Below, piece by piece: positions 10,277 through 29,938 of a stretch of DNA of 64,000 nt (the stretch's first letter is position 1; every line of letters starts with the position of its first letter). The translations under genes were made by a program, and so were the position numbers. A model generated the notes under the pieces. It was not told the origin of the DNA and made no database searches. It worked only from the letters and a program-made list of their open reading frames with translations. Source of the stretch: Candidatus Bathyarchaeota archaeon (GTDB taxonomy: Archaea > Thermoproteota > Bathyarchaeia > 40CM-2-53-6 > JALHTG01); the NCBI GenBank assembly GCA_022865705.1, contig JALHTG010000108.1, positions 627 through 64,626 of the forward strand. The letters are read 5' to 3'.

Positions 10277-10284
10277 GCGCGCGC
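10277..10284. repeat. Alternating CG run, 8 nt (GGCGCGCGCACTAG)
   Basis: Left edge of accessory island 1, between the histone gene and the PIN fragment. Confidence 0.9.
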
Positions 10285-10310
10285 ACTAGTCGTCCGCACT
10301 TTGTTCTGAG

Positions 10311-10616
10311 GTGGCTCCGGAACTGGCTGAGGATGCGCTGAACTACGCCGTGGCTTACGGTGTCGAGTCTTGGGATGGCTACCTGATCGCCTTGACGAGA
10401 AGTCTAGGAGCCAAGACCGTTTACTCCCTTGATGAAGAGCTTTCCAAGGTGAAGGAGGTTTCCGTGAACTGTCCCTTTACCAGAGAAAAGCTGGATGAAT
10501 ACCATCAATACGTTGAAGGTGTTCTCAAGAGGCAGGGTATCTCAAGCCTTATTCACAACGCTCACAAAGGGCAGAGGGCGAAGAAAGAGCATGCGCGCCG
10601 CTATCCACGCAGATGA
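10311..10616 (+). pseudogene. PIN-domain (VapC-like) C-terminal fragment
   Basis: Only the C-terminal PIN segment is present (WDGYLIALTRSLGAKTVYSLDEEL). No N-terminal acidic residues. Begins just after the CG run at 10277. The tail reads through another GCGCGC at 10593. Confidence 0.5.
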
Positions 10617-10621
10617 GATAA

Positions 10622-11257
10622 GTGATGCTTGCCAATGGGAGGGTTCGTCTTCTTCCTAACCGAGTTCGTTGCGCTCGTGCCGATCGGGCGCGCGACGCCA
10701 AGACCATTCTCTTCGTCGGCGCCCTATCCAAATGGCATGGCTACAAAGGCCTGGAGGTTCTCATCAACGCTCTCGCAATAGCTAGCAAACTGCGAAAAGA
10801 CATGGCCCTACTTGTTGTAGGCGACGGAATCCTCAAGCCAGCCTACCAGAAGCAAGCTTCAGAGCTCAACCTTTCAGACAAAGTCATCATCGCAGGAGAC
10901 GTATCAGACCAAGACCTCCCATCCTACTACGCCGCTTTGGACTTACTCGTTCTGCCAAGCAAAGACAGGTCCGAAGGCTTCGGCCTCACGATTCTTGAAG
11001 CAAACGCATGCGGAAAACCCGCAATCTGTTCCAATGTCGGAGGAATCCCCGACGTGATCCACCACGGACGTAATGGCCTCCTCGTCCCGCCGAATGATCC
11101 AAAGGTGCTCTCCAATGCGCTAGTCCTCCTTGTCGAAGACGACTCTCTGAGAACAGAGATGGGAAGGAACGGTCGGAGATTCGCAGAAGAACACGACTGG
11201 TCAAAAGTCGCAGACGCAACTGAGAAGATATATGATGAAGCTCTGCAGCAGCACTAG
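10622..11257 (+). pseudogene. GT-B (family 4-like) glycosyltransferase, C-terminal half only
   Basis: Recognisable homology starts at KTILFVGAL, right after the CG run at 10688-10694. EGFGLTILEANACGKP and GGIPDV motifs are present. The whole N-terminal Rossmann domain is missing. Confidence 0.65.
10688..10694. repeat. Alternating CG run, 7 nt
   Basis: Immediately precedes the first recognisable residue of the glycosyltransferase fragment. Confidence 0.9.
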
Positions 11258-11478
11258 GTCCTATTTCTTGTCTCGATCCTTGTTAGCAAGATCTACATAA
11301 GTTCTCCTCGCTCACGAAGAGCAACCTGGTACCTTCTACGGGCTTAAGCGAGCGAGGCTGTTGAATGGGTATAGCGCACGCTAAGGCCACTGTCTCCAAG
11401 AGGGAGGCAAAGCACAATTCTGTTTCGAAAGCAGACCTGGGGGCAGGTGAAGCAAACTAGGTCTCAGCTAGAACTATA

Positions 11479-11485
11479 GCGCGCG
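11479..11485. repeat. Alternating CG run, 7 nt (TATAGCGCGCGG)
   Basis: Intergenic, between the glycosyltransferase fragment and the HEPN/MNT pair. Confidence 0.9.
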
Positions 11486-11605
11486 GGGCTCGCTGACAGC
11501 GATACGAGCGATGGTTATCGTCTCTGCTCTAGGATCGGGATACAACTGCTTTCATGCTTGACGTTACACACAATGTATTGCTAAATAGGCCCATTCGACA
11601 CTACA

Positions 11606-12028
11606 ATGTCAGGTGGACGCCCCTTGGTTATGAGAACCAGAGACTGGTTCAGGCAGGCTGTGAAGGATCTCCAGCACGCCAAGAGGTCGTCTGATGCTGG
11701 GGATTTTGAGTGGGCATGTTTCGCCGCTCAGCAAGCCGCCGAGAAGGCAGTCAAGGCGCTTTATCAAAGTATGCATATAGACGCTATCGGACATTCGGTT
11801 TCGAGGATGATGCAAGACCTCCCTGATTCTATGAAACCACTCGAGGATCTTGTGGAGCAGGCGAAGGAACTGGACAAACATTACATTCCCAGCCGCTATC
11901 CCAACTCTCATCCGGAGGGAGCTCCCCTAGACTATTACACAGTGTCTGAGGCGCGGAGAGCTGTGGAAGGAGCAGAGACGATAATTGAGTTCTGTAGAAA
12001 TAAGATACCTGAAGATCAACTTCGATGA
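11606..12028 (+). CDS. HEPN domain protein (toxin partner of a HEPN/MNT pair)
   Basis: 140 aa. HEPN-type helices with A(A)EKAVKAL and the Rx4-6H-like segment SRYPNSH. Confidence 0.75.
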   Translation: MSGGRPLVMRTRDWFRQAVKDLQHAKRSSDAGDFEWACFAAQQAAEKAVKALYQSMHIDAIGHSVSRMMQDLPDSMKPLEDLVEQAKELDKHYIPSRYPNSHPEGAPLDYYTVSEARRAVEGAETIIEFCRNKIPEDQLR

Positions 12029-12422
12029 GATCCTCCGACGGCTAAGGGAATACGCCAAGTCCAAAGCCGAAGCACATGGAGCAAGAGCGATCGTTCTTAC
12101 AGGTTCATTGGCCAAGGGAAACTACGCTGGAACCTCAGACGCAGACGTCCTCGTCATCGCGGACAACCTTCCCAGTCAAGCACTCGAAAGATATGCTCTC
12201 TTCTCTGAACCTAGAATGCCGATCGACGTAGAGCCGCGAGTGTACACCCCAGAGGAATTCATTGACAAGATCCGCAAAGGCGACCGCTACGCGCTTGAAT
12301 CCCTCGAAATCGGCATACCCCTTCACGGCGAACAGTTCTTCAAGGGCCTCAAAAGATTCCTCACTAGCTTTCCCGGTAACCCTGGCCAGCGGCGCGCACG
12401 GCCGGCCGAATCACTGAGCTAG
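11985..12422 (+). CDS. Minimal nucleotidyltransferase (MNT) partner of HEPN
   Basis: GSLAKGNYAGTSDADVLVIAD (GSxxxG...DxD). Overlaps the HEPN gene. The last ~12 codons are encoded by GCGCGC plus GGCCGGCC (12392-12407). Confidence 0.75.
   Translation: MSSVEIRYLKINFDEILRRLREYAKSKAEAHGARAIVLTGSLAKGNYAGTSDADVLVIADNLPSQALERYALFSEPRMPIDVEPRVYTPEEFIDKIRKGDRYALESLEIGIPLHGEQFFKGLKRFLTSFPGNPGQRRARPAESLS
12400..12407. repeat. GGCCGGCC palindrome (context cACGGCCGGCCga), 2 nt after a GCGCGC
   Basis: Read directly. Lies in the 3' tail of the MNT ORF. Confidence 0.95.
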
Positions 12423-12491
12423 ACGACAAGCTGAGCACAGTGGTCCAGCATATTGCCCTTCAGCCATCCAGCGTTAAGGCTCTTGAGCCAG

Positions 12492-13004
12492 GAAAAGAAA
12501 AAGAGCAACTTAACGAATCGAAAAGATCTATCTAACTCTAGATTCTAGGCCAGGGCGTACAGCGTCCGCTAACGATCCCGTGTTCAGTGGATGGGAAAAA
12601 GGGGCGTTAGGGGATTCTTCCTCCAATCACTGAAATCAAAGTGTGCGGCGCGAGTGGTGCGCACAGACAATTCTGCCGCCTTCTAGACGAAGAATAAGAT
12701 TCCATCCAATACTAGGTGAGTCGTCCAACCCAGAAAAGCCCCGACCATAATCCATCTGATCTTTTTCAGCGATGTCAACGGCAATGCCAGCATGGCAAGC
12801 AAGATGAACGGGTAGACCCAGTAATGAAGAAGGGTCAACGGAAAGTATTCCGTTCTTAGTTCCCATCTGAACAAATCCCAAAACGTGAAGGGAACAACCT
12901 GGCTTGCTCTGACTTCCATTCGGAAAAGATGGTCTAGGTCTGGGAACTCCATCATAAACAAGACGAAAAGATAGAACAGTCTCTGAGGAGATCGTATTCC
13001 ACAT
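12492..13004. repeat. Copy A of a ~510-bp direct repeat (3' flank and C-terminal two thirds of a DUF457-like gene)
   Basis: Aligns by eye with 14643-15151. The gene-internal part is close to identical, and the 12492-12680 flank is more diverged. Confidence 0.85.
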
Positions 13005-13213
13005 CGTCTGAGAACAAGGAAAAGCGCCAGGCACATGATGGCTCCAAACAGGATGTGAGATAGGCCGGCCGTTATCACTGATGCAACTACTACGGAAGGC
13101 ACTAGAACTGCTCCGATTCCACCAAGGGGTGCAAAAGCCAGATATCCAAGTGGGATCATGGGTAGGAATCGAAGAACCGATCCTGCCAAAGCAAGAGCGC
13201 CGAGGTGAAGCAT
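12683..13213 (-). CDS. Polytopic membrane protein, DUF457/YdjM-like membrane-bound metal-dependent hydrolase family
   Basis: 176 aa, hydrophobic throughout, ends TTHLVLDG. Contains an in-frame GGCCGGCC at 13063-13070. Confidence 0.5.
   Translation of the reverse strand: MLHLGALALAGSVLRFLPMIPLGYLAFAPLGGIGAVLVPSVVVASVITAGLSHILFGAIMCLALFLVLRRCGIRSPQRLFYLFVLFMMEFPDLDHLFRMEVRASQVVPFTFWDLFRWELRTEYFPLTLLHYWVYPFILLAMLALPLTSLKKIRWIMVGAFLGWTTHLVLDGILFFV
13063..13070. repeat. GGCCGGCC palindrome (context taGGCCGGCCGTta)
   Basis: Read directly. The only copy inside an apparently intact ORF (DUF457-like, encodes T-A-G-L). Confidence 0.95.
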
Positions 13214-13399
13214 TCATCTCGTTTGAGACTTTGCTCTAGCGAAGCAAATCCAAGAGAAAACGTTCCCCGAGAGAAACGATGCCAGCCAATCCAAGTAAGG
13301 CGACATCAAAACTACGTACGGCAATTCACAAGCCGACGCAAGCAAGGGCAGTGAAAAGAAAAGGTTCACAGCCGAGAAATAGAAGAAAGCCAACATCAA
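13214..13399 (-). CDS. Small hydrophobic ORF abutting the DUF457-like gene (TGAATG junction)
   Basis: 61 aa with two predicted TM segments. No recognisable family. Confidence 0.25.
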   Translation of the reverse strand: MMLAFFYFSAVNLFFSLPLLASACELPYVVLMSPYLDWLASFLSGNVFSWICFARAKSQTR

Positions 13400-13441
13400 G
13401 ATCTTGCTCGAAGCAGACTTCGAGCTTTCTGGTCAAATGAG

Positions 13442-13453
13442 ACGCGCGCGCGT
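13442..13453. repeat. 12-bp perfect palindrome ACGCGCGCGCGT (10-nt CG run)
   Basis: Intergenic. Has the same ACG...CGT frame as ACGGCCGGCCGT at 14608. Confidence 0.9.
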
Positions 13454-13595
13454 ACCCCGATAACCGCAAGGCTCCCATGGAAGCTTCTGAACTCCGAGGC
13501 AGATTTGGTTCATGCTGGATTTCCTAGCCCGTACAACGCCTTCTCCGCCTCTATAGTTTCCGCGATCAGAAGAACCCCCACCATTCTAACATGGC

Positions 13596-13603
13596 GGCCG
13601 GCC
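13596..13603. repeat. GGCCGGCC palindrome (context gcGGCCGGCCgc)
   Basis: Read directly. Intergenic, upstream of the MazEF-like pair. Confidence 0.95.
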
Positions 13604-13716
13604 GCGAACAACGCATAGCAAACTTAAATTCTCTCCCAAGCCCGATAAGTCCCAGAGATATGAACAAACTGGTTCATGAATGGTCAGAACTCGGAAGCGT
13701 GTGTGGGTGACATAAC

Positions 13717-13905
13717 TTGACGATAGAGGTTGAGATCAAGGAGATCAAAGAGATGTTGGGAGAGTTGAACAAGAAACTGGACGCGCTTGTTCAAGAGCGA
13801 GAAACAGTGGCAATGATGATTATGTCCCAACAATCTCTCAAAGATTTCCTCATGAGTGAGCCAGACCTGTACTCTATAAGGGACGTAAAGGTAGCGTACA
13901 AGTGA
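13717..13905 (+). CDS. Putative antitoxin of the MazF/PemK-like toxin
   Basis: 62 aa with TTG start. Coiled and charged sequence. 4-nt overlap (GTGA) with the downstream toxin gene. Confidence 0.5.
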   Translation: MTIEVEIKEIKEMLGELNKKLDALVQERETVAMMIMSQQSLKDFLMSEPDLYSIRDVKVAYK

Positions 13906-14231
13906 AGGGCAAGATCGTTCTCATACACTTCCCCTTCACGGACCTAACAAGCTCAAAATTGAGGCCCGCACTGGTCTTGATGGAAGGCGAGAAGGACTGT
14001 GTCGTCGCTTTCATATCATCCAGAATACATGCGGAACCTTCATCTATGGAGATACTGATTCCAGAAGATCATAAAGAATTTGTCAGTACGGGACTCAAGA
14101 AAACCTCGGTCGTAAAGCTCGATAAGATTGCAACGATATCAAAGGATCTGATGCTCGGCGAGATTGGAGAGATCGGGGAAACTCTCCGAGTAGAGGTGAA
14201 CAGGAAACTTCGGGACGCATATCAGCTGTAG
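13902..14231 (+). CDS. mazF: PemK/MazF-family toxin (endoribonuclease-like)
   Basis: KGKIVLIHFPFTDLTSSKLRPALVL and KTSVVKLDKIATI follow the MazF/PemK pattern. Confidence 0.7.
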   Translation: MKGKIVLIHFPFTDLTSSKLRPALVLMEGEKDCVVAFISSRIHAEPSSMEILIPEDHKEFVSTGLKKTSVVKLDKIATISKDLMLGEIGEIGETLRVEVNRKLRDAYQL

Positions 14232-14529
14232 CAAGTCCTTGAATATCGAGCATGAGCGATCGTACGCAATTGGATGATGCGGTACCAGTCCGCGTTTCGT
14301 ATACATCTTTGTTTTGAAATCATTCTCCCTGAAAAGATCATCTGATGAGTTCCAACTCGGAGCATTAGAAGAAGTGAATGAAAAGCATGGCATATTGGCG
14401 TATCCACAAACAATCAATGAGGAGGGGTGAAGAGCAATAATACTCCTCATAGGCAGTTGGAGCATATCATAACTGCAAGACCTCTATTCGAACGCCTCCA
14501 AAGGCAGGTTATGGAAGCGGTGGAAAAGA

Positions 14530-14536
14530 CGCGCGC
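14530..14536. repeat. Alternating CG run, 7 nt (AGACGCGCGCC)
   Basis: Intergenic, downstream of the MazEF-like pair. Confidence 0.9.
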
Positions 14537-14607
14537 CAGCTTGGTCCGAAATCTAAGTCTCTGTGTCAAGAATCGACTTTGTACATGTTGACCGCGGGAA
14601 AGTCCAA

Positions 14608-14619
14608 ACGGCCGGCCGT
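14608..14619. repeat. 12-bp perfect palindrome ACGGCCGGCCGT
   Basis: Read directly. Intergenic, downstream of the MazEF-like pair and 18 nt before a CG run. Confidence 0.95.
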
Positions 14620-14636
14620 AATATCACAAGAAACTG

Positions 14637-14643
14637 GCGCGCG
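14637..14643. repeat. Alternating CG run, 7 nt
   Basis: Left boundary of repeat copy B. Confidence 0.9.
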
Positions 14644-15151
14644 AAAAGAGAAAGAGAAGCTTCACTAATCGAAGAGATCCACCTAGATCAGAACCTTACG
14701 TCAGGACATACAGCGCCCAATAACGATCCTGTGTTCAATGGGTTAGGAAAACGGGGTCGAAAAATCCTTCCTCCAATCACAGAAATCAAAGTGCCTGGCG
14801 CAAGTGGTGCGCGCAGACAATTCCCCCCTCTAGATGAAGAGCATAACTCCATCCAATACTAAGTGAGTCGTCCAACCTAGAAAAGCCCCGACCATAATCC
14901 ATCTGATCTTTTTCAGCGATGTCAACGGCAATGCCAGCATGGCAAGCAAGATGAACGGGTAGACCCAGTAATGAAGAAGGGTCAACGGAAAATACTCCGT
15001 TCTCAGCTCCCATCTGAACAAATCCCAGAACGTGAAGGGAACAACCTGGCTTGCTCTGACTTCCATTCGGAAAAGATGGTCTACGTCCGGAAACTCCATC
15101 ATGAACAAGACGAAAAGATAGAACAACCTCGGAGGGGATCTTATTCCACAT
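14643..15151. repeat. Copy B of the ~510-bp direct repeat, bounded on both sides by CG runs
   Basis: Starts at the last base of the CG run 14637-14643. Homology to copy A ends at 15151, one base before GCGCGCGC at 15153-15160. Confidence 0.85.
14830..15126 (-). pseudogene. Truncated second copy of the DUF457-like membrane protein gene (lacks the N-terminal ~75 codons)
   Basis: The 98-aa product is nearly identical to residues ~80-176 of the 12683-13213 product. Confidence 0.8.
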
Positions 15152-15170
15152 AGCGCGCGCTAGTATGTGG
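15146..15170. repeat. Imperfect 25-nt palindrome CCACATA-GCGCGCGC-TAG-TATGTGG
   Basis: Right boundary of repeat copy B and the stop of the membrane-protein fragment. The outer 7-nt arms are exact reverse complements. Confidence 0.9.
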
Positions 15171-15468
15171 CGCAAACAAGAATAGTGCTCAAGGCAAGCG
15201 GGACAAGTCGTAGAAAGACCGAGGGATCTAACCTTGAGATTTCCTTGATTGTGTGAAGAAGAAGGAAGAAGAATGGCCGCTCAGTGGAGAAGGCAATCCG
15301 AAAGCCCATTATGTCCATGCGACCAAGCACATAGGCATAATATCTAGCGTCTTGACCGAGAGGATATCCCCGAGACCACTGATAGCTTGAGACAAAAACC
15401 CCCAAGAGAACAGCGAAGCCAACCAGAATTCTCCAGTCGAGCCAAGTCTTTCTCGTCTTGCCGCTCAT
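15160..15468 (-). pseudogene. N-terminal ~100-aa fragment of a polytopic membrane protein (GT-C/ArnT-like N-terminus)
   Basis: The reading frame stops at a TAG immediately adjacent to GCGCGCGC (15153-15160). The fragment is too short for this type of protein. Confidence 0.45.
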
Positions 15469-15638
15469 CTCATCCGAATGAAGTAGACCACGTTTCGCTC
15501 GATTAGTGGCAAACTTACTGCCAGCCGGCTACGCATAGAAACAGACAGAAAGATGAGAATCGGCCACATATCGCCAAAACATCAGAACCCCTGAGACAGA
15601 AACAGTTTAACTGTGATTCCTGCAAGTAGGGACGATGT

Positions 15639-15749
15639 GCTCCGGTCGTCTAGCCCGGTCAAGGATCGTGGCCTCTCGGGTTGCAGGAGAAAGCCATGGA
15701 CGCGGGTTCAAAATGGTTCCAAGCCATGAAAATCCCGCCCGGAGCACCA
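15639..15749 (+). tRNA. tRNA-Glu (anticodon CUC) with two intron-like insertions and an encoded CCA
   Basis: Acceptor stem GCTCCGG/CCGGAGC, then A73 and CCA. D arm has A14, G18G19, A21. Anticodon stem GTGGC/GCCAT with CTC at 15675-15677. A 13-nt insertion follows position 37 (15679-15691). T stem GCGGG/CCCGC encloses 27 nt instead of 7, which implies a ~20-nt insertion (~15713-15732). Confidence 0.8.
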
Positions 15750-15836
15750 CATCTCTGAGTTGGCAACTCATACATATGGGCATCCTGATACTGCACTAAC
15801 CATCTCTCTGCCCAAACGAGTTCTTCGGTAGTCCCG

Positions 15837-16235
15837 TCACAGCCATTCAGACCGGATTTCATGAATTTTCTTGAAGTGTGAATCGTCTGAAAGCACGCGT
15901 CTTGACTTTGTTTCTATGCTTGTTGCGGCAACAATCGAATCAGCTGTGGGCAAGTCTCTATATTGGCATCTGAGCTTGGCGGACATCAGTGCAATCCTAG
16001 TCGTCAAATCGACTATTCTAAACCGAGAAACTATGATCGAGTTAACGCGAAGCCGGGCGGCATCTTTTCCAACGTTGTCATACATGAATTTGTGGATCTC
16101 GTGGAGCACAATCGTTGGGACTATCGCTGTCTCGCGCTGGAGTTCAGCCATTTTTCGTGAGGTTTTCTGCTTGAGTTGATCTGTGTTTGCAACATAGTGT
16201 GTCAGGAAGAAACGTGTGTCAACGGTGAGTGGCAT
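15837..16235 (-). CDS. vapC: PIN-domain toxin VapC
   Basis: 132 aa. Acidic PIN residues in the contexts VDTRFF, LHE, ADS, SDD. Confidence 0.8.
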   Translation of the reverse strand: MPLTVDTRFFLTHYVANTDQLKQKTSRKMAELQRETAIVPTIVLHEIHKFMYDNVGKDAARLRVNSIIVSRFRIVDLTTRIALMSAKLRCQYRDLPTADSIVAATSIETKSRRVLSDDSHFKKIHEIRSEWL

Positions 16236-16237
16236 AC

Positions 16238-16474
16238 TCAGTACCTGTCTTGAGTCCTCAAGCCGTCCAGCCTCTTCTTCATCTCTTCTAAGCTGATCTT
16301 GCCAGCGTCAACTCCTGCCAGGTCTTCTATGGGGGTGATGGGCTTAATGATGATGCCCTCTTTGCTGTCTCTTATGAGGACTCTCATTCCTTCTTTTATC
16401 CCGTATTTCCTTCTCTTCGTAATGGGTATTGTAACTTGGCCCTTCCTAGTGACCAGCACGATTTGCTCCGACAT
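16238..16474 (-). CDS. vapB: AbrB/SpoVT-type antitoxin VapB
   Basis: MSEQIVLVTRKGQVTIPITKRRKYGIKEGMRV is a swapped-hairpin AbrB-like motif. Start set to the internal ATG at 16474. Lies 2 nt upstream of vapC. Confidence 0.75.
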   Translation of the reverse strand: MSEQIVLVTRKGQVTIPITKRRKYGIKEGMRVLIRDSKEGIIIKPITPIEDLAGVDAGKISLEEMKKRLDGLRTQDRY

Positions 16475-16909
16475 TGCAGTTCGGTAGTACCGTAGCAAAA
16501 GGTTGTACTTAAGATGTTTATCCTGGACACAGTGGATTGTGGGCCGGACGATTTCCGGAAGCCTCCATCGAGGCAGCGGGCCTAGAGGATAGGTCACATT
16601 TCTCTTCGCAGGTTTTGAACCCAAATGAGTATGGATCCCCGCCCGGAGCATCATTGAAAAAGTCTGAGTTGTGGCTCCAGATTTCTATGTTTGGTTGTCT
16701 CTTTCTTCTTGAAGGCTTGAGTCGACTATTCGTTGCAGGGTAATAATCTTTCTTTCCAGTAGCTCTGGTCTCTGGCCGTGATAGGTTTCGTTGCGGTTGA
16801 GGAAGCGGTTGATGCGTGGAAAAGCACGCCTGGTAGGACATCAGTTTGAGTTTGTCTTGATTGTTTATGAGGCCGGCAAGCCAGTTAGAAATGCTGTACC
16901 GCGCGGAAC

Positions 16910-17116
16910 CTAGGCAGCAACTTCTTTCTTTGCCAAGGCTTGAACCATGAGAGGGACGTTCCTGCTTGCATTGAGCACCTCAAGGAACAGCGGTTCACCT
17001 TCTTTGCTCAAATGTATGACTATGTCTCCCATCTCCTCGGCATGCGAAAGGTTGCCGGAGTCAGAAACGACTATCATCAGCACGTCAGATTCCGGATCAT
17101 ACTTGAGCCTATACAT
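16910..17116 (-). CDS. DUF2283-family small protein (antitoxin-like partner of DUF4258)
   Basis: 68 aa. KYDPESDVLMIV matches the YDxExDxL signature of DUF2283. Confidence 0.65.
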   Translation of the reverse strand: MYRLKYDPESDVLMIVVSDSGNLSHAEEMGDIVIHLSKEGEPLFLEVLNASRNVPLMVQALAKKEVAA

Positions 17117-17377
17117 TGAACCTCTCCCTCTTCACTGGGTTGAAGATCAAGACGACTATATTACCATTAGCCATCTTGTAGACTACCCTGATAGCGTATT
17201 CTCGATCCAGCGGCTTGAGTGCCAACAGTTGGTCGTCTCTTCGGTCAACTCGGCTTGGCTTGCGACGGCTTCTCTGACAGAAACTTCGGAAATGTCGAAC
17301 CCGTACCTTCTCAAGAACTCGAATTTGTCGCGAGCATGCTTCGTGAGTCTGATCCTCTTCAATCTTTCAGCGGTCAA
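17109..17377 (-). pseudogene. DUF4258-like toxin gene with an apparent 1-nt frameshift
   Basis: The N-terminal frame (LTKHARDKFEFLRRYGFDISEV) stops at 17183. A second frame continues ...ALKPLDREYAIRVVYKMANGNIVVLIFNPVKRE and ends at 17109, overlapping the ATG of the DUF2283 gene. Confidence 0.55.
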
Positions 17378-17910
17378 TATGGCTCATATCGAGATATGCG
17401 CCGGAAGATGATAAAGCACTTCATCTTTGTTCTGTAATCGAGTAGGTCTAGGTGTGTGAGTCAACGCGAGAAATCTTGGCTGGAGGAAGGGATGTCGTTC
17501 TGCGGAACTTTGGATGAATCTGTTGAGGCGTTGTTTCGCTCTTGTCTCGTTAGTGGATTCATTTTTCTCTGATGTTCTTGGTTGTTTTTTTGAAAGATCA
17601 TGCTGGCAAATCCTTCTGAAGTCTGCTAGAGTCCCGTGACTTTTGTGATCTCAAAGCAGGGTGAGAGCTCTGCGCCCTGCAACTCCTGCGTCTTCCCGTG
17701 AGCCAGATATCGATGGCAGTTCTGTTTTGCGATCGTGATGCCCTTGAATCTACTGGTGAACGGCTAGATTCATGTGTTAGGAGTTGTTGCTTTGATGTTC
17801 ATCATGTCTTTGGGCGTTTTTCGGTATGTCGGGGGCCAACATATGGCTTAAATAGCGTTCGGGGACTATTCAGCTTCCATGCGCGATTTCGATAGCGCAA
17901 AAACTCTAAA

Positions 17911-17926
17911 GGAGAAATGAAAATTG
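17911..17926 (+). promoter_or_regulatory. Shine-Dalgarno-like GGAG plus TTG start of the surface-protein gene, overlapped by a 4-codon mini-ORF (ATG AAA ATT GAA TAA)
   Basis: GGAG at 17911-17914 lies 9 nt upstream of TTG at 17924. The ATG at 17918 is out of frame and stops after 4 codons. Confidence 0.4.
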
Positions 17927-21775: not shown

Positions 21776-21776
21776 A

Positions 21777-21966: not shown

Positions 21967-22773
21967 CTACAAGATCTTCAGTAGTTCTTCCTCGAACTTT
22001 CTTGCGAAAACCTCAGGATCCCTTTCCGGCACTGTACTGGTTATCTTGTTTCCGTTGAAGATGACCTCTAAACCGCAGAGCAAGGCCTCATCCAGCATCC
22101 TTGGCAATCCATCTTGCGAAGTCATACGGATGAGCCGCCTATGCCTAGCGTAAAGCTCAGGCATTTTTTCCTGAGGCATAAACGGTATCACTTCGACATT
22201 AGGCAAGTCGATCTTGTGATCTGCTGGGCTGGCCGCGTTTCCTATTATGGTTATCTTCTCCTTAGGATGCTCCTTGGCGCGATTCAAGATCCAGTCCAGT
22301 CGATATATCCTAGCGCTATCATCTCCACCTGGGCAATAGTAGAGCGTATCCCTCTCAGGCCGTAAGCTATCCCTCACCTTCTTGAATTGGTCAACGTTTA
22401 TCGGAAAAGGAAGAGCTGCACCCTTCTTCCCAACAAATTCCATCAGATGAGGCGACGTGTAGAAAGCTAGTTCGCATGCGTAAACTACGAACCTCCAAAA
22501 CAGTTTCCGGAAACCCCTCTCATCCGCATACCTATAGGCGTCGCTTCCCACAAAGTGAACAATGGTCTTCTTCCTCAAGGCCTCTGCGGCTGCCAAGTAG
22601 CGACTCGCCGTTTGGAGGTGCGCACCGTAGACCACATCAATCCCTCTCAGTTTCAAAGGGTTGGGAATCTTCACGTCCTCCGTATACTCGACTTGGAGTC
22701 CTCTGCTTCTCAAAGCTTTCACGACAACTTCGTTGTTGCAGCCCCTGGCACCGACCATAAGTATCCTCACCAT
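21967..22773 (-). CDS. Glycosyltransferase-like protein (GT-B-like, weak)
   Basis: 268 aa from the internal ATG at 22773 (MVRILMVGARG), with GGAG about 10 nt upstream. The general two-Rossmann layout is only loosely recognisable. Confidence 0.4.
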   Translation of the reverse strand: MVRILMVGARGCNNEVVVKALRSRGLQVEYTEDVKIPNPLKLRGIDVVYGAHLQTASRYLAAAEALRKKTIVHFVGSDAYRYADERGFRKLFWRFVVYACELAFYTSPHLMEFVGKKGAALPFPINVDQFKKVRDSLRPERDTLYYCPGGDDSARIYRLDWILNRAKEHPKEKITIIGNAASPADHKIDLPNVEVIPFMPQEKMPELYARHRRLIRMTSQDGLPRMLDEALLCGLEVIFNGNKITSTVPERDPEVFARKFEEELLKIL

Positions 22774-22910
22774 GGCTCGTTCTCCACTCTCAAGTCGCTC
22801 ATAGTTCATCATGAGGAAAAGGTTAATCGTTCTTTCAAGAGGCATGCATCTTTACAGATTCAGAAATGGTCTGGATCCCTCTAGAATGAGAACACTTGAT
22901 AACAGATACC

Positions 22911-22922
22911 AGCGCGCGCCAC
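22911..22922. repeat. AGCGCGCGCCAC, left copy of an identical 12-mer direct repeat
   Basis: Intergenic, 132 nt from the vapC stop. Confidence 0.9.
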
Positions 22923-23053
22923 TCCAAGTTGGCATTTACGTGTGGATATGTGTGTGTTCAATTGCTGTGGGCCGATTGCTTGCTTTCAATTGTCAAATGT
23001 GTTGTTGAGGTATGGCTTTCGGTCTTCTTGGACGTATCCAGCTACCATAGTCC

Positions 23054-23494
23054 TTAAGTAGATATTTTCTCAGGTTTGGTTTCTCTTAGGAGTTGGGTCG
23101 CGCAGTATTGTCTTGTCTTGATGAGAAGGTCCCTGTCAGCGGTAATCAGTGTGGCATCATGCTCTTTGGTGAGCGCGACATACATGGCATCATAGAACGT
23201 TACTTTCAACTGCTTTGATATCTCGAAGCTTTTTCCTAGCAGCTTGGTGTCAGCGAAGCTTCTCAACTCGATGCCCAAATTCAGGAGTGATTGGAAAGCG
23301 CTTGCTGAGCTGTCTGATGTAAATGAAGGATGTTTTGTCAAGACGTTTCCAATCTCATAGATGACGATTAGTGGCGACGAAAGGACTATTTTTCCGGCTG
23401 AATGCAAATCTCGGATTTGAATCGCCTTATCGGAATCCTCCTCGGTGATGTACCATTTGGCGACAACCGAGGCATCTATGACCATATTTTTCAT
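23054..23494 (-). CDS. vapC: PIN-domain toxin VapC
   Basis: 146 aa. VIDASVVAKW N-terminal Asp, FYDAMYVALT, ITADRDL. Confidence 0.8.
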   Translation of the reverse strand: MKNMVIDASVVAKWYITEEDSDKAIQIRDLHSAGKIVLSSPLIVIYEIGNVLTKHPSFTSDSSASAFQSLLNLGIELRSFADTKLLGKSFEISKQLKVTFYDAMYVALTKEHDATLITADRDLLIKTRQYCATQLLRETKPEKIST

Positions 23495-23727
23495 CGTGAA
23501 TTCCTCGCGTCCCTGATCACTTTGACGCTGTCGAATTTGACGCCTTTCGTCTTCTCTCTCAATTCGTCCATGATTCTGCAGGCTTGCTTCCTTTTTTCGA
23601 CCTTAACCCTCTCTTCTATTGCTTGCCTCAGGTAGTCTGCCCAGTCCAAGTCTAGCCTGTTCATATCTTCCTTCAGATCTTTGGGGACGCGGATCGAGAC
23701 AACCTCCATGGTGAGCGACCTCACCAC
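23491..23727 (-). CDS. vapB: VapB-type antitoxin (RHH-like)
   Basis: VSIRVPKDLKEDMNRL...ADYLRQAIEERV. 4-nt overlap with vapC. Confidence 0.7.
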   Translation of the reverse strand: MVRSLTMEVVSIRVPKDLKEDMNRLDLDWADYLRQAIEERVKVEKRKQACRIMDELREKTKGVKFDSVKVIRDARNSR

Positions 23728-23787
23728 GATACATATTTGCTTACAAATAACGTTTTCTCAGAGCGTTTACCAAAAAGTATACGGTAA

Positions 23788-23799
23788 AGCGCGCGCCAC
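23788..23799. repeat. AGCGCGCGCCAC, right copy of an identical 12-mer direct repeat
   Basis: Intergenic, 61 nt from the vapB start. Confidence 0.9.
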
Positions 23800-23845
23800 A
23801 GCCCCACATTCGACATAATATCCAATAGACCCGATGCACTAGCTC

Positions 23846-23853
23846 GGCCGGCC
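23846..23853. repeat. GGCCGGCC palindrome (context tcGGCCGGCCGTagca)
   Basis: Read directly. Immediately precedes the start-less IS110 N-terminal reading frame. Confidence 0.95.
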
Positions 23854-23858
23854 GTAGC

Positions 23859-24235
23859 ATAGGTATTGATGTGGGTAAGAGGCGTTGCCAGGCATATGTT
23901 ATAGATGAGCATGATTCGATTGTAGACGAATTCGAGTTCGAGAACAGCTTCGAAGGCCTGTCGTATCTTACTGGAAAAGCGAAACCGGGCCCTGCGAAGC
24001 CTGCAGTTGGATCCGGTGGATAGATGCATTCTCAACACTCATCTACGCCACTTGGAATGTCTGAGACGCGAAACGGGGATGCTTGATTCGAAGATAGCTG
24101 CAAAGGCTAGTGAAAGCCAAGAAGCCAAGCTGTTGATGAGCTTCACAGGAATAGACTATCGCAGCGCGATGCTCACAACATCAGAGATCGGAGACATCTC
24201 AAGATTTCCCTCGTCGAAGCATCTTGTCGCGCGCG
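23859..24235 (+). mobile_element. Decayed IS110-family transposase gene (N-terminal piece, internal deletion or frameshift, part of the C-terminal domain)
   Basis: The frame beginning right after GGCCGGCC (23846) reads IGIDVGKRRCQAYVIDEHDSIVDEFEFEN, an IS110 N-terminal pattern without a start codon. A second frame reads LLMSFTGIDYRSAMLTTSEIGDISRFPSSKHLVA (Transposase_20-like) and loses homology at the CG run 24228-24235. Confidence 0.7.
24228..24235. repeat. Alternating CG run, 8 nt, followed by TCCACTCCA
   Basis: IS110 homology ends here. The flank resembles the flank of the 22911 site (CCACTCCA). Confidence 0.9.
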
Positions 24236-26194: not shown

Positions 26195-26312
26195 TCCTTG
26201 TCGTCTTTCTCTATTGGAACAGTGATCATGTGGACCGCTATCTCTTCTTTGATGAGGTCTTTCCAATTGGTTGTTGCTCGCATCATTCCGGATTTTGATA
26301 GAAGATATCGTA

Positions 26313-26582
26313 TCATGCACTTTTTCGGCCGGCCGGACGAATCCTGCCTTGCATATGAGGCGGAAGCTTGCCTGCTGCTTGTAGTCGCCTCAGCCTGGAG
26401 AACGTGCTCCAGTCCATGTTCAGCCTCCGCTGCACCTGCTGAGCGTTGCTTGACTCAACGAACGATGCGTACTTAGCCACGATGTCGCCGCACTGCCAGC
26501 GTTTTTTCACTTCAGGGTCGCTGAAGTTTGCTTCATGTCTGAACCACATTCCGCGGCGGCGGTAATTCATACGGCCGGCCAC
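26313..26582 (-). CDS. Orphan 89-aa ORF filling a 254-bp segment bounded by two GGCCGGCC sites
   Basis: No recognisable family. Both ends of the ORF run into the palindromes at 26327 and 26573. Possibly a gene fragment. Confidence 0.2.
   Translation of the reverse strand: MAGRMNYRRRGMWFRHEANFSDPEVKKRWQCGDIVAKYASFVESSNAQQVQRRLNMDWSTFSRLRRLQAAGKLPPHMQGRIRPAGRKSA
26327..26334. repeat. GGCCGGCC palindrome (context tcGGCCGGCCgg)
   Basis: Read directly. Left edge of the 254-bp segment. Confidence 0.95.
26573..26580. repeat. GGCCGGCC palindrome (context tACGGCCGGCCaccgtag)
   Basis: Read directly. Right edge of the 254-bp segment and left edge of the PIN-like/UPF0175 cassette. Confidence 0.95.
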
Positions 26583-27211: not shown

Positions 27212-27221
27212 CAGTGAAAGT

Positions 27222-27557
27222 TTACTCCTTCAACGCTGCTTCAAAATCCTCGATGAAATCCTCTGACGTATACTGTAGAGGGACCTTCCTTTTCTCCATC
27301 TCATCCATAAGCTCCCATAGGGAGAGACCCGCGATGTCGGCTGCCTTCCACACGGTAGCTGATCCCTCAAGGTAGGACCTCAACGCTTTCTCCAGCTTCC
27401 AGCGCTTAACGTAAAGATCGGCTGCACGCACAATGACCGTTGACCTGTCAACTCTTTCTTCAGATGCAATCCTGTCAACTTCGTCTGCAATGTCGTGGCG
27501 AAGCCTTGCAGCGATCACTCTCATCCCTTGACCTTCTCGCCTAGCCAACTGGGTCAC
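27222..27557 (-). CDS. UPF0175-family antitoxin-like protein
   Basis: 111 aa. SATVWKAADIAGLSLWELMDEMEKRKVP is the typical UPF0175 C-terminal HTH-like segment. Lies upstream of the PIN-like gene. Confidence 0.6.
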   Translation of the reverse strand: MTQLARREGQGMRVIAARLRHDIADEVDRIASEERVDRSTVIVRAADLYVKRWKLEKALRSYLEGSATVWKAADIAGLSLWELMDEMEKRKVPLQYTSEDFIEDFEAALKE

Positions 27558-27779
27558 CGTTTACACGATTGAATGGCGTATACACATATTTAAGCTGATC
27601 TGGACCATTCTGTGTGAACAAAGTGACTAGCAGTCACCTACAATAGGCTTTGCGAACACCGCTCGTCACCAAATCAAGCGAAACCCAGCTAGCGAAGACA
27701 GTGTTGTTGACCATACTCAAATAGAACGTTAAGTGTTCTCCCTAGTCGAGGTCGTTCAGCAGGCTGATATCTTCGGATA

Positions 27780-28304
27780 TTGGGATACATGCTCTTCAGA
27801 ACTTACGGGCCGGCCGGCCATCTGAAACGGCTCAGCGGACGCGAAGCCCACCATAGAAGAAACGTGAACCATGTCATCAGCAAGAAGCTGGTGGTGAAAG
27901 CGAAAGACACTGGGCGCGCAATCGTCCTGGAAAAGCTGAAAGGCATACGCGGCCAGACAACGGTTAGGAAAGCTCAGCGTCACCGCCACAGCTCTTGGGG
28001 ATTCGGGCAGATGAGAAACTTCATCGAATACAAGGCAAGACTCGCTGGAACTCAAGTCGTGGCCGTGAATCCGAGAGGAACCTCCCACATATGTCCTCGT
28101 TGTGGGCCTGAAGCAAAGCAGAACCGTCCGACAAGAGATCGATTCGAATGTGTAGGATACGGCTTCGCTGGGCCTGCGGACTACATAGCGAGGTTAAACA
28201 TCGCCGCAAGGGGCGCAGTCAGTCGCCCTATCGTTCCGAGGACCTTTTTGGAGCATCAAGCTCACCTCAGGGACAAGCCAACAATTTCAATCGTTGGTAG
28301 CTGA
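27780..28304 (+). mobile_element. TnpB (IS200/IS605 OrfB) C-terminal fragment, degenerate
   Basis: HVISKKLVVKAKDTGRAIVLEKLKGI (RuvC-II Glu), SHICPRCG zinc-ribbon half, ADYIARLNIAARG. The second CxxC is degraded (ECVGYG). Homology begins at the GGCCGGCCGGCC site at 27808. The N-terminal two thirds are absent. Confidence 0.7.
27808..27819. repeat. GGCCGGCCGGCC (two overlapping GGCCGGCC)
   Basis: Read directly. TnpB-fragment homology begins here. Confidence 0.95.
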
Positions 28305-28454
28305 CTCCGCTGCTGATATTGTGTATTCGCGCGTTTCCCTCAAGAATCTGTTTTCAAGAGCCAGTGTGATCTTCTCGTCGCTTAACCTTTTTACATCAGC
28401 GTCCAATGAGTTCCTATTGGCAACCAGCTTCTCAACTTCCTCCTCCATCTTCCT

Positions 28455-28868
28455 TCAACCAAAGAATCGTTGAATGAAGCTGCGACAGTCTTCCAGTGCC
28501 TTCTTGACCCTTGGAAACACATGGCCCACTATCACCTCATACTGTTCAGAAGGGTGCTCGTAGGGATACCGGAATCTTGCTCTGCTTCTCGCCAAGTCAT
28601 CGGCGACATCAGCTATGCTCTTGATCTGTTTCGCGAACCACTGAGGATACTTCTCCCTCATCTCATAGAGGAAGCGTCCCACGGTGTGCGTCTTAGGGTA
28701 ATCCATACCGTAAGCCAACAGCACCGCCTTGACTGCGTATTCCGAGCACTCCTGAAGATATTTCAACGCGCCGGCGTAGTCCTTCTCTTTCAGACTCGCC
28801 ATGGCGCTTCTGAACTCGCGCTCCGCGCTCGCGATCGCCTTCTCAGCACCGGTCTTGTTGACGGCCAT
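28455..28868 (-). CDS. HEPN domain protein
   Basis: 137 aa. EYAVKAVLLAYG helix and RARFRYPYEH (Rx4-6H-like). Confidence 0.7.
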   Translation of the reverse strand: MAVNKTGAEKAIASAEREFRSAMASLKEKDYAGALKYLQECSEYAVKAVLLAYGMDYPKTHTVGRFLYEMREKYPQWFAKQIKSIADVADDLARSRARFRYPYEHPSEQYEVIVGHVFPRVKKALEDCRSFIQRFFG

Positions 28869-28872
28869 CCAT

Positions 28873-29724
28873 CTATCCCAAATCTATCCTGATCTGTTCG
28901 CCGAAGGTGACATGGGGCTTCAGAACCCAGCAATAGGTTCCGTCTGAGTATTCGATTCGAAAGGTTCCTAGGGCACCCAGAGCTTCCTTAAGCCTGATCA
29001 TTAATTTCTGAAAGAACTCCTCCCTGTCGAATAGAACCGCTCTATGACGAAGCATGTCAAGATATGTGGATTGAAAACTCTCCGCATCGCTCTTCCGTAA
29101 GGACGCCGTGGTCACTTCTGGATATCCGCAAAATCCTCGCACTCTAAACCAGTAGTCGCAGGTCCTATACTCCCATGTGGATCGGAAACATCTGAAGACA
29201 CTTCCTTCACGTTGCCAAGCGTTCCTCGCACAGTCTTCCAGCACGTAAAGCAGATCTATGTCGCTTCCATCAAGTTGAAATGTGTCTTTCACAACAGACC
29301 CATAGAGGACGAGCGAAACGAGTTCATTACCGAACTCGTGAACGAAGAGCTCCGTCAGACGCCTGAGCGACGCTCGGATCCATCCATTGCGCATCTTGAC
29401 GAACTCCTCACAGTTCACCCCCCTGCGTTTGACCTTTTCCTCTAGTTCAGCAATTCGGAGCGCAGCCTCGAAGCCTTCACCAGTAATCCTGTATCGGCCT
29501 TCGTTCTTCTGGATTTGACCCTCAGCACACAATTCCCTCAGACGTCTGGTAAGTGTCCTTGTGTTGGTCACCGTCTCATTCAACTGTTTGAACCTAGCCT
29601 CCCCCACAGAAAGTCGACGCAGAACATCTGCGGCCCCTTCCCTCGACAAGAAATCTAGCCTCAAGTTGCTGTACCGTGGTAAAGCACACTTTAAGCGGAC
29701 TAATAAGCATAGAGACGCCGCCAA
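28873..29724 (-). CDS. Winged-helix (HxlR/ArsR-like) domain fused to a nucleotidyltransferase domain, partner of the HEPN protein
   Basis: N-terminal ARFKQLNETVTNTRTLTRRLRELCAEGQIQ. NTase core LVLYGSVVKDTFQLDGSDIDLLYVLED. Confidence 0.6.
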   Translation of the reverse strand: MAASLCLLVRLKCALPRYSNLRLDFLSREGAADVLRRLSVGEARFKQLNETVTNTRTLTRRLRELCAEGQIQKNEGRYRITGEGFEAALRIAELEEKVKRRGVNCEEFVKMRNGWIRASLRRLTELFVHEFGNELVSLVLYGSVVKDTFQLDGSDIDLLYVLEDCARNAWQREGSVFRCFRSTWEYRTCDYWFRVRGFCGYPEVTTASLRKSDAESFQSTYLDMLRHRAVLFDREEFFQKLMIRLKEALGALGTFRIEYSDGTYCWVLKPHVTFGEQIRIDLG

Positions 29725-29755
29725 GCCTCTCTAGAGATTTCTATCGTAGGCCCTT

Positions 29756-29938
29756 GTGTGGGTGAACGCGGGCGCTACGCATCAAGAATTCATCCGCTAC
29801 TGGAACTATCAGCGGCCACATCAAGGCATAAGCTACCTATACCCTGCAGACATATGCTTCCGCGACCTAAAGAATGAGACACATGTTGATGGATGGAGGA
29901 ATGCTCGGATATCTTACAGTAACCTTTGTCATATCTGA
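29756..29938 (+). pseudogene. C-terminal fragment of a DDE (rve-type) integrase/transposase
   Basis: FIRYWNYQRPHQGISYLYPADI matches the conserved YNxxRPHxxL tail of rve-domain transposases. Nothing upstream of it. Confidence 0.55.

Follow-up and report, generated by a model that had tools for sequence, protein, structure and literature searches.

Are the short GC-only palindromes in the accessory DNA of this locus exchange sites of a recombination system, or marks left behind by other events? The window, a 64-kb stretch of DNA from a sediment archaeon (Bathyarchaeia), was compared with DNA of its close strains. The features discussed are collected in Table 1.

Abundance and placement of the runs

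In an unbiased k-mer scan of the window, GGCCGGCC and (GC)4 are the most over-represented 8-mers and CGCGCG/GCGCGC the most over-represented 6-mers, with the (CG)3-5 class enriched. GGCCGGCC is found at eight loci (12400, 13063, 13596, 14610, 23846, 26327, 26573 and 27808, the last reading GGCCGGCCGGCC). Its nine overlapping matches, against an expectation of 0.53, were reached by none of the shuffles of the window, while CGCGCGCG has six overlapping matches against 0.4 expected. Alternating C/G runs number 17 at a length of at least 7 nt and ten at a length of at least 8 nt, and ACGGCCGGCC is read on one strand at five loci; these counts of loci and runs agree with those of an earlier, sequence-only reading of the window. 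All four GC-only palindromic tetranucleotides are present among the runs, and positions within 12 nt of a run make up 1.9% of the window. Such runs are a lineage-specific feature: their density per 10 kb is 3.9 in the window, 4.7 in the close strains (170 kb) and 0.23 in other Bathyarchaeia (177 kb), a difference of about 20-fold.

The sequence-only reading had confined GGCCGGCC to 12.4–27.8 kb, where all eight loci indeed lie, with none elsewhere in the window. Placement in accessory DNA only stands for this class and fails for the CG class, four of whose ten long runs (5617, 43607, 55212 and 60291) are found outside 10–30 kb, in core intergenic DNA. Outside the island, non-coding DNA makes up 14.5% of the sequence and holds six of the seven runs of at least 7 nt (p = 6e-5). 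The GGCCGGCC copy at 13063 is itself coding (..VITAGLSH..). The run at 5617 is missing from L026, which reads TTAGC-AGG where the window reads TTAGC-GCGCGC-AG.

The gene breaks previously proposed beside the runs are real. The PIN fragment comprises residues 89–176 of a 190-aa PIN protein that is intact in L025, the glycosyltransferase ORF matches a full-length paralogue from residue 22 (nucleotide 10685), the truncated membrane-protein copy is a duplicated fragment, the IS110 N- and C-terminal pieces are both present, and TnpB homology begins directly after its run. The claim that the window holds no recombinase is correct for intact genes only: IS110, TnpB and an rve-type transposase are present as fragments.

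Table 1. Runs, junctions and associated features of the window.
Position	Strand	Feature	Basis
859..865		CGCGCGC run, core intergenic	kept in L024 and L025
5617..5624		GCGCGCGC, 22 nt 3′ of LTD-domain gene	strain comparison
10277..10284		scar GCGCGC(ACT) in place of 1565 nt kept by L024 and L025	strain comparison
10311..10616	+	PIN gene C-terminal fragment, remnant of 1565-nt deletion	
10593..10601		GCGCGCCGC, near joint of PIN 3′ end and glycosyltransferase fragment	
10685..10694		CGGGCGCGCG, where full-length glycosyltransferase homology begins	
10751..11250		500 nt absent from L028 and L031, GCGCGC in place	strain comparison
11479..11485		GCGCGCG, CTATA just before, upstream of HEPN-MNT pair	
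12389..12408		composite GCGGCGCGC-A-CGGCCGGCCG, MNT ORF 3′ tail	
13063..13070		GGCCGGCC within intact membrane-protein gene 12683-13213 (minus)	
13443..13452		(CG)5; (CG)4 in L024, a length polymorphism	
13593..13606		GGCGGCCGGCCGCG, non-coding DNA	
14530..14552	+	left inverted-repeat remnant of IS5/IS1182-like IS	21/23 nt match
14609..14618		CGGCCGGCCG, cuts off IS left-end remnant	
14636..14643		GGCGCGCG, start of duplicated fragment; ~60 nt absent relative to copy 1	
14643..15151	-	duplicated 3′ part of gene 12683-13213 and downstream DNA	87% identity to 12492-13004
15153..15160		GCGCGCGC, IS right-tip remnant	
15639..15751	+	tRNA-Glu(CUC)-like gene, two apparent introns; conserved right border of first variable block	
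17161..17605		445 nt absent from L015, GCGCGCGCGC in place	strain comparison
22912..22919		GCGCGCGC(CAC), left of PIN/antitoxin pair	
23789..23796		GCGCGCGC(CAC), right of the same PIN/antitoxin pair	
23845..23854		CGGCCGGCCG, divergence point of three strain haplotypes; IS110 N-terminal piece follows in window	
24228..24235		CGCGCGCG, end of IS110 C-terminal piece	
26326..26336		CGGCCGGCCGG, 25 nt from 35-residue UDP-glucose dehydrogenase paralogue fragment	
26572..26580		CGGCCGGCC, TA just before	
27806..27819		CGGGCCGGCCGGCC, TnpB gene truncation point	
29767..29775		CGCGGGCGC, end of L015 homology, start of rve-type transposase C-terminal fragment	
33235..33241		CGCGCGC run, core intergenic	
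43607..43614		CGCGCGCG run, core intergenic	
53968..55126	-	whole 371-aa gene, absent from L022 but for last three codons, ACGCGCGCG in place	
55212..55220		13-nt insertion relative to L022: (CG)n and 5-7 nt direct duplication (CAAGTCG)	
60291..60298		CGCGCGCG, 3 nt from edge of 978-nt segment 59324-60301 absent from L022	

Runs at strain-specific junctions

Among independently assembled close strains, the run sits on the shorter allele in at least six deletions of 0.4–1.6 kb, including a loss of 1.2 kb in L013. In the five deletions for which both edges of the intact allele were read, the run is found at neither edge, and the clearest cases are J2, J6 and the 1565-nt and 500-nt deletions. The 445-nt deletion in L015 cuts a DUF4258-like gene and leaves (GC)5 in place; its left edge is a native TA, and the edges of the intact allele are run-free. 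The same is true of both intact-allele edges at the L022 deletion of the 371-aa gene. The segment of 1565 nt that L024 and L025 retain encodes, besides the N-terminal 88 residues of the PIN protein, an antitoxin and a HEPN/MNT pair on the minus strand, and the joint of the PIN 3′ end with the glycosyltransferase fragment is common to these two strains and the window. The right edge of the 500-nt deletion is also a native TA (CAC/TAGGTCC), and the L022 joint at the 978-nt deletion reads GGGGCCGGCCTCTACGCGCGCGCG.

In all five deletions whose edges were read, there is G/C microhomology of 2–3 nt between the far edge and the run, and two deletion edges lie inside native GGCC. Runs also accompany small replacements, such as TTGG to CGCGCGCG(C) in L024. 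Most run polymorphisms are indels rather than substitutions, and a GGCCGGCC at 15508 has been gained and lost via point substitutions among near-identical strains. By our own tally, a run is present at about 11 of 16 large junctions, where about one would be expected. Because the intact alleles of the clear deletions are run-free at both edges, the runs are created by the rearrangement event and are not pre-existing recombination sites.

An IS with GC-only tips

One junction that bears a scar in the window is occupied in other strains by an IS5/IS1182-like IS of ~1.13 kb, with inverted-repeat tips GCGCGCC...GGCGCGC and a TA target duplication. In L024 (16160-17294), the IS has a 19-nt perfect inverted repeat and lies exactly between window positions 14552 and 15155. 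Weaker similarity to the IS extends beyond 14552 to about 14607, and the right flank at 15153, TAGTATGTGG, is the same as that of the intact IS in L024. This junction and the end remnants in the window support, for the CG class, the suggestion in the sequence-only reading that the palindromes are footprints of an unknown mobile-element family. The suggestion fares less well for the GGCCGGCC class, for which no explanatory element, and none with CGGCC tips, was found. The 64-kb window holds no intact IS, and only one occupied site is present in ~170 kb of close-strain DNA. Nine more copies, at seven more sites in other genomes and samples, all have GCGCGC(C) tips; one of the nine, L042, is from the same sample series, Ga0315279. 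Over the eight distinct IS sites, TA abuts the tip at nine of 16 ends, and L040 and L042 alone have it on both sides. One side of the IS is therefore commonly rearranged, which is the pattern seen in the scars. Of the 81 run ends that start with G, 18 have TA just before them, compared with a background of 5%. In the 445-nt and 500-nt deletions, the one side that bears TA is native to the intact allele, and the scar of the 500-nt deletion is exactly one tip copy, GCGCGC.

The reading that we favour, with a probability of roughly 45%, is that DNA breakage and rejoining left the GC-only palindromes as scars, which do not function as recombination sites, the CG class most likely stemming from the tips of a TA-targeting IS5/IS1182-like IS and from adjacent deletions. 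The CGCG-type runs at least look like leftover mobile-element tips rather than cassette-exchange sites. An IS would insert at TA, and DNA beside one of its ends would often be lost, the far end falling at 2–3 nt of G/C microhomology with the tip. Later loss of the IS would leave one or two tip copies, (GC)3-5, sometimes still beside TA, and slippage would then change the run length. As the tip GCGCGC reads the same on both strands, the two tips are also direct repeats. Scars would persist only where harmless, namely intergenic DNA, pseudogenes and the gaps between toxin-antitoxin modules, and for this reason the runs would seem to cut accessory DNA into units and to abut gene fragments. We infer that most solo runs share this IS origin and that the IS was lost in this manner; for the GGCCGGCC class, the source may be another element, as yet unseen, or the same repair step.

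Several observations count against an IS origin. About four scars per 10 kb is a very high scar-to-element ratio. A 2-bp TA duplication does not fit 55212, which has its longer duplication and no TA, or the TTGG replacement, and the L013 and L022 scars are without a clean TA. The tips predict GC phase, whereas one third of the 8-mers are in CG phase, and runs of 8–10 nt are longer than a single 6-nt tip. Solo runs keep the GC-only tip and no more of the inverted repeat, the sole exception being 14530. Neither GGCCGGCC, which point substitution can also alter, nor the mixed strings GGGGCCGGCCTCTACGCGCGCGCG, CGCGGGCGC and GGCGGCCGGCCGCG can derive from the IS5/IS1182-like IS.

Other possible origins

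The breadth of junction types could instead be explained by a lineage-specific end-joining process, which we regard as possible though doubtful. Broken ends would be extended with short tracts of self-complementary G/C sequence, either (CG)n or (GGCC)n, which would anneal to each other or to G/C microhomology before ligation and so stamp every repaired break, transposases and TnpB being merely frequent sources of breaks. This one process would cover large deletions, the 13-nt insertion with its 5–7 nt duplication, the 4-to-9 nt replacement and, at 15153, an inverted 7-nt duplication. Both motif classes would be covered too, together with mixtures of the two and imperfect strings of G and C alone. 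It is also consistent with the microhomology in five of five deletions, with the cutting of fragments from four unrelated mobile elements (IS5-like, IS110, TnpB and rve-type) at GC-only strings, and with the IS copy in L036, which adjoins an extra GC-only palindrome, GGCCGCGGCC, outside its tip. However, we know of no enzyme or precedent for strictly alternating or 4-nt-periodic filler, and the DNA examined shows no gene for a candidate polymerase or ligase. End-joining also leaves unexplained the TA enrichment beside runs and the GCGCGC tips of the sole junction IS, a GC-only palindromic 4-nt tip having a chance of ~1.6%. An origin in assembly chimeras or in linker or adapter contamination is scarcely credible: the motifs do match the rare-cutter cloning sites of FseI, BssHII and AscI, but the same sites, marked by independent SNPs and differences in length, recur in at least ten separate samples (five JGI contig series, ENA and Logan), and alleles that have a given run are otherwise collinear with those that lack it. 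Assembly artefact was rejected on this recurrence.

Sites linked to restriction-modification or methylation are an unlikely source. Enzymes recognising GCGCGC, CGCG, GGCC or GGCCGGCC would make the sites hot spots of cleavage and rejoining, or biased mismatch repair near a cytosine methyltransferase would produce them, as proposed for the iterated palindromes of cyanobacteria. The representation of all four tetranucleotides, the substitutions at 15508 and the deletion edges in native GGCC would fit, and the parting of three haplotypes at one common GGCCGGCC (23846) suggests repeated events at an existing site. Cutting and ligation, however, require sites at both intact-allele edges, which are absent in the clear deletions; indels predominate over substitutions, and neither a methyltransferase gene nor a nuclease gene was found in the DNA examined. 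The integron-like system proposed in the sequence-only reading, whose recombinase, encoded elsewhere, would swap units lying between 8–10 nt GC palindromes, is more improbable still. Runs do cut the 10–15.6 kb block into units of 0.3–1 kb with one or two genes each, and direct GCGCGCGCCAC repeats flank the PIN/antitoxin pair. Yet the deletions are not site-to-site, runs arise where the intact allele is run-free, single runs are also found in core intergenic DNA, and the run flanks share no sequence beyond chance. Alignment with L024, L025 and L031 reveals deletions, one IS insertion and one duplication, with all units in window order and none at a second location. The runs differ from HIP1 of cyanobacteria in being excluded from coding DNA, and from an integron cassette array in that unit order is never shuffled between strains.

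Abundance and placement of the runs

The over-representation of short GC-only palindromes, here called runs and divided into an alternating CG class, (CG)n or (GC)n, and a GGCCGGCC class, is confirmed and extended. The counts of the sequence-only reading hold: GGCCGGCC is present at eight loci, none of them outside 12.4–27.8 kb, and alternating C/G runs of at least 7 nt number 17, of which ten are at least 8 nt long. For GGCCGGCC, 0.53 loci were expected. An unbiased k-mer scan places GGCCGGCC and (GC)4 at the top of all 8-mers and CGCGCG/GCGCGC at the top of the 6-mers. Confinement to the variable island holds for the GGCCGGCC class and fails for the CG runs, four of the ten long ones being located in core intergenic DNA. 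Six of the seven runs of at least 7 nt outside the island are non-coding, where non-coding DNA makes up 14.5% of the sequence (p = 6e-5), and positions within 12 nt of a run account for just 1.9% of the window. The GGCCGGCC at 13063 sits within an intact gene. Per 10 kb, the window carries 3.9 runs and close strains (170 kb) carry 4.7, against 0.23 for other Bathyarchaeia (177 kb, with zero occurrences of GGCCGGCC); the feature is therefore lineage-specific. Polymorphisms among strains are mostly indels, with one substitution case seen; near 15508–15538, GGCCGGCC is gained or lost by point changes among near-identical strains. A (CG)5 run is also found within an intact GT4 glycosyltransferase gene of a close strain (L022, 6715–6735), where it encodes HPRARLY in place of HPQF-LY in the window orthologue; it may be an in-frame scar tolerated in coding sequence.

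Features of the window and compared contigs (window coordinates unless a contig is named)
Feature	Position	Strand	Remarks
Full-length TnpB element	L026 3941-5179		IS1341-type; inserted between window 7961 and 8050 in one strain
Histone gene	9925-10146		island starts after it
Island: toxin-antitoxin pairs	10-30 kb		PIN, HEPN/MNT, MazF, UPF0175 (Pfam/NCBIfam scans)
Island: glycan-synthesis genes	10-30 kb
Island: transposase fragments	10-30 kb		IS110, TnpB, rve-type
Histone-tRNA gap	10147-15598; L002 4349-5092; L003 1908-3125; L013 1330-1822		hot spot
Variable GGCCGGCC site	15508-15538		TGCCAGCCGGC in window; TGCCGGCCGGC in L024 (17642), L034, L035; GGCCGGCCGGC in L025 (17138)
tRNA-Glu(CUC)-like gene	15639-15751	+	two apparent introns: after anticodon, in T-loop
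ATCCCGCCCGGAGCA direct repeats	15731-15747; 16634-16650		15 nt of the tRNA 3' end
PIN/MazE toxin-antitoxin pair	15837-16474	-	flanked by the ATCCCGCCCGGAGCA repeats
DUF2283 gene	16910-17116
DUF4258-like gene	17117-17377	-	upstream of DUF2283 gene
Surface protein gene	17924-21775	+	1283 aa
Glycosyltransferase-like gene	21967-22845
Toxin-antitoxin stretch	22795-23860
UDP-glucose dehydrogenase paralogue fragment	26198-26302	-	35 residues
Truncated TnpB	27815-28305
Transposase fragment	29756-29938	+	C-terminal end, rve-type (IS3/IS481-like)

NadA and its neighbours, which share 84% amino-acid identity with MAG contigs, assign the window to Bathyarchaeia. The content of the gap between the histone and tRNA genes varies in every species or strain compared, and consists of a RelE-like pair, an AbrB and PIN pair, or 0.5 kb of other DNA. 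The tRNA-Glu-like gene is 83–97% conserved across four compared contigs (L002, L003, L013 and L020), and its acceptor stem and T-arm fold once the introns are removed by hand; it was missed by both ARAGORN and Rfam, neither of which returned a match in the window. The ATCCCGCCCGGAGCA repeat pair resembles the attachment sites that a small integrated element would have. The surface protein gene is a strain mosaic, in which blocks of 70–90% identity alternate with many in-frame indels. The toxin-antitoxin stretch is 99–100% identical among five strains, whereas the adjoining glycosyltransferase-like gene is just 90–94% identical, a contrast in sequence identity that suggests a possible recent transfer or sweep. 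The DUF4258-like gene seems frameshifted and is probably a pseudogene. The 3′ half of the full-length TnpB shares 86% identity with the truncated copy in the window. An ORF called at 12636–13217 was in the wrong frame, the real gene being 12683–13213, and the ORF at 26313–26582, between two GGCCGGCC sites, matched no family.

Joints of structural differences between strains

Strain contigs 85–99% identical to parts of the window were drawn from several independent assemblies, by a metagenome scan with the surface protein and by look-ups of an asparagine-synthase homologue and of the histone. Exact-protein look-ups with three window proteins gave no match; the histone and homologues of other proteins reached the strain contigs. 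Intergenic alignments against the species-level relatives L001–L003 were too divergent for runs to be called insertions. Identical run sites recur in independent contigs, each with its own SNPs, so the runs are not artefacts.

The joints of structural differences between strains usually bear a run; by our own count, one allele has a run at about 11 of the 16 large junctions. Contig L015 lacks 445 nt (window 17161–17605) inside the DUF4258-like gene and has GCGCGCGCGC instead, a deletion joint through which the gene in the window reads. L013 lacks 16523–17729 and carries GTCGCGCGCG, while L022 lacks 53968–55126, a whole 371-aa gene of which the last three codons are kept, and carries ACGCGCGCG. 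The window itself lacks 1565 nt present in L024 and L025 and has GCGCGC(ACT) at 10277, a loss that reduces the PIN protein to residues 89–176. Two contigs (L028 and L031) have GCGCGC in place of 10751–11250 (500 nt). With both edges read, the intact allele has no run at either edge of the L015, L022, 10277 and L028/L031 deletions; the L013 deletion is not among these. In the five deletions with edges read, the far edge shares 2–3 nt of G/C microhomology with the run.

Smaller differences are of several kinds. At 55212 the window has 13 nt more than L022, comprising a (CG) run and a 5–7 nt direct duplication. L024 has CGCGCGCG(C) in place of TTGG in the window, the run at 5617 is absent from L026, and the (CG)5 of the window at 13443 corresponds to (CG)4 in L024. 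Three haplotypes diverge at one shared CGGCCGGCCG at 23846, and both alleles have runs at 60291. Neither target-site duplications nor inverted repeats derived from a flank are a general feature: one 7-nt direct repeat (55212) and one 7-nt inverted repeat (15153) were found, and the remainder matched random controls.

The runs are rejoining scars. Being made by rearrangement events, they are not pre-existing recombination sites, which counts against the proposed integron-like cassette array in the island. The deletions do not extend from site to site; L024, L025 and L031 keep the window order, and no unit was found shuffled or at a second location among the compared strains. Similarity among the flanks of 218 run ends is no greater than in random DNA. 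That the window holds no intact recombinase was borne out by Pfam and NCBIfam scans of the ORFs at 8–33 kb, which recovered transposase fragments only and no site-specific recombinase. Without pre-existing sites, shuffling, flank similarity or an intact recombinase, an integron-like system is not supported.

Several other candidates were discarded. Local alignments of 12400, 13063 and 14610 as copies of one gene segment, and an all-against-all test of GGCCGGCC flanks as inverted-repeat families, gave chance-level similarity. A protelomerase-like tel site (TACGCGCGTA) was dropped because its flanks are not palindromic. A REP/BIME, MITE or other repeated palindromic element was rejected for want of multi-copy sequences, shared flanks or an Rfam family, and a HIP1-like iterated palindrome on account of the non-coding placement of runs outside the island and the dominance of indels.

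An insertion sequence with GCGCGC tips and possible origins of the runs

A 1135-bp insertion sequence (IS) is found in L024, L034 and L035, exactly between window positions 14552 and 15155. It encodes a DDE transposase of 332–339 aa, for which IS1182 and IS5 are the best family matches, both under the curated cut-offs, and its inverted repeats begin GCGCGCCAGCTTGGTACAA. This is the one site with occupied and scarred alleles. Of 23 nt of the IS left repeat, 21 remain in the window at 14530, with weaker similarity on to 14607; at 15153 the window retains GCGCGCGC and, after it, the right flank TAGTATGTGG that also adjoins the IS. Nine further copies at seven further sites, one from the strains' own sample series, also have GCGCGC(C) tips; altogether, each of the ten copies read, from eight different insertion sites, has tips of the form GCGCGCC...GGCGCGC. 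A TA adjoins the tip at nine of the 16 ends of these eight sites, with L040 and L042 alone having it on both sides, which implies that the IS duplicates TA and that one side is often rearranged later. In a contig of another lineage (L036, 1376–1392), the left tip of an IS of the same family adjoins an extra GC-only palindrome, GGCCGCGGCC, and a solo GCGCGCGC is located 400 nt from the IS.

The CG class is best explained as tip scars of this TA-targeting IS5/IS1182-like element together with adjacent deletions, a reading in which we place a confidence of about 0.45. GCGCGC is its own reverse complement, so the two IS tips are also direct repeats, and a run is what would remain if the interior were lost. 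The scar of the 500-nt deletion is exactly one copy of the IS tip. TA precedes 18 of 81 G-starting run ends (22%, against a 5% background), although most ends, like the insertion at 55212, have none. In the deletions of 445 nt and 500 nt, the side with the TA is present in the intact allele as native sequence. Scars number about 4 per 10 kb, against one occupied IS site in about 170 kb, which is a poor fit to tip scars. Other misfits are the duplication at 55212, which is longer than TA and has no TA, the runs of more than 6 nt, which require two tips or slippage, the one third of 8-mers that are in CG phase, the solo runs, which almost never retain the repeat beyond the GC-only tip, and the point substitutions that alter GGCCGGCC at 15508. 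The suggestion of mobile-element footprints is thus supported for the CG class, by matching IS tips and an occupied and scarred site, and not for the GGCCGGCC class. The IS cannot account for GGCCGGCC or for mixtures such as GGGGCCGGCCTCTACGCGCGCGCG, and no element with CGGCC/GGCC termini, sought as an opposed TACGGCC ... GGCCGTA pair at IS-like spacing, was found in the window or the 43 loci.

The main rival is filler from end joining by the host, in which self-complementary G/C nucleotides would be added at the joint. Such filler would cover all the cases that misfit tip scars, including GGCCGGCC and its mixtures, and the inserted nucleotides are indeed absent from both parental flanks at J2 and J6 (two of the clearest deletion junctions) and at the 10277 and L031 joints. 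Yet it leaves the IS tips and the TA excess unexplained, and we know of no enzyme that produces it; we rate it as less probable than tip scars. A lineage-wide form, in which break repair seals breaks with G/C-only (CG)n/(GGCC)n tracts and so stamps every illegitimate joint, would make the IS tips a coincidence or an adaptation, and appears unlikely. Literature searches on GGCCGGCC in archaea, GC-rich filler at deletion joints and archaeal IS footprints returned no matching report.

On any of these readings, runs are a readable marker of structural change, present on most gene-sized deletions and replacements between strains of this population, and the rule of a gene fragment next to a GC-only palindrome finds pseudogenes and rearrangement joints in these genomes. 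If tip scars are correct, a single IS family would have passed through about once per few hundred bases of non-coding DNA and would be the chief force behind the loss of genes and the decay of toxin-antitoxin islands in an uncultured archaeon, with footprints usable to count past transposition. Repair filler would point to an unknown archaeal end-joining chemistry, considerably more novel, and a break-repair stamp would be a naturally occurring mutational signature of a novel end-joining enzyme in archaea.

Comparison with known systems

HIP1 (GCGATCGC) has been reported at deletion borders. It resembles the runs as a palindromic octamer strongly over-represented in one lineage. In cyanobacteria it is known as the highly iterated palindrome (PMC5861425, PMC4390886), conserved within and between ORFs and apparently kept by selection (PMC5861425). 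Unlike HIP1, the runs avoid intact genes, come about through indels at junctions and are about 100-fold less frequent. In integron attC cassette arrays, too, short imperfect palindromes separate small units, promoterless or of toxin-antitoxin type, within a variable block; here there is no integrase, attI or cassette shuffling, and the sites are 6–12 nt long, lack conserved flanks and are created by deletions.

The mobile GC clusters of yeast mitochondria and the PstI palindromes of Neurospora mitochondria are elements 18–50 nt long whose sequence is conserved and which make a target duplication of their own. They too are GC-rich palindromes in AT-richer non-coding DNA at deletion or recombination junctions, whereas the runs share only 6–12 nt. 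The joints of V(D)J recombination and NHEJ contain non-templated (N) and palindromic (P) nucleotides; the runs recall them in their G/C-biased filler, in the deletions and small duplications that go with it, and in one inverted repeat derived from a flank, but the filler here is strictly periodic, self-complementary and identical at unrelated joints.

Tc1/mariner and IS630-type elements leave palindromic footprints flanked by TA, and the 'nearly precise excision' of Tn10/Tn5 occurs between short repeats within the inverted ends; to our knowledge, such excision footprints are rarely reported in prokaryotes. Read as tip scars, the runs resemble them in being a short palindromic remnant of two element tips, with TA next to some of the run ends, in having one site with both an occupied and a scarred allele, and in the truncation of the adjacent gene. 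They differ in that the scars far outnumber the elements, are GC-only and of variable length, in many cases are without TA on one side or on both, and are accompanied by kilobase deletions. Transposon footprints are known; the scale and sequence of the runs are unusual.
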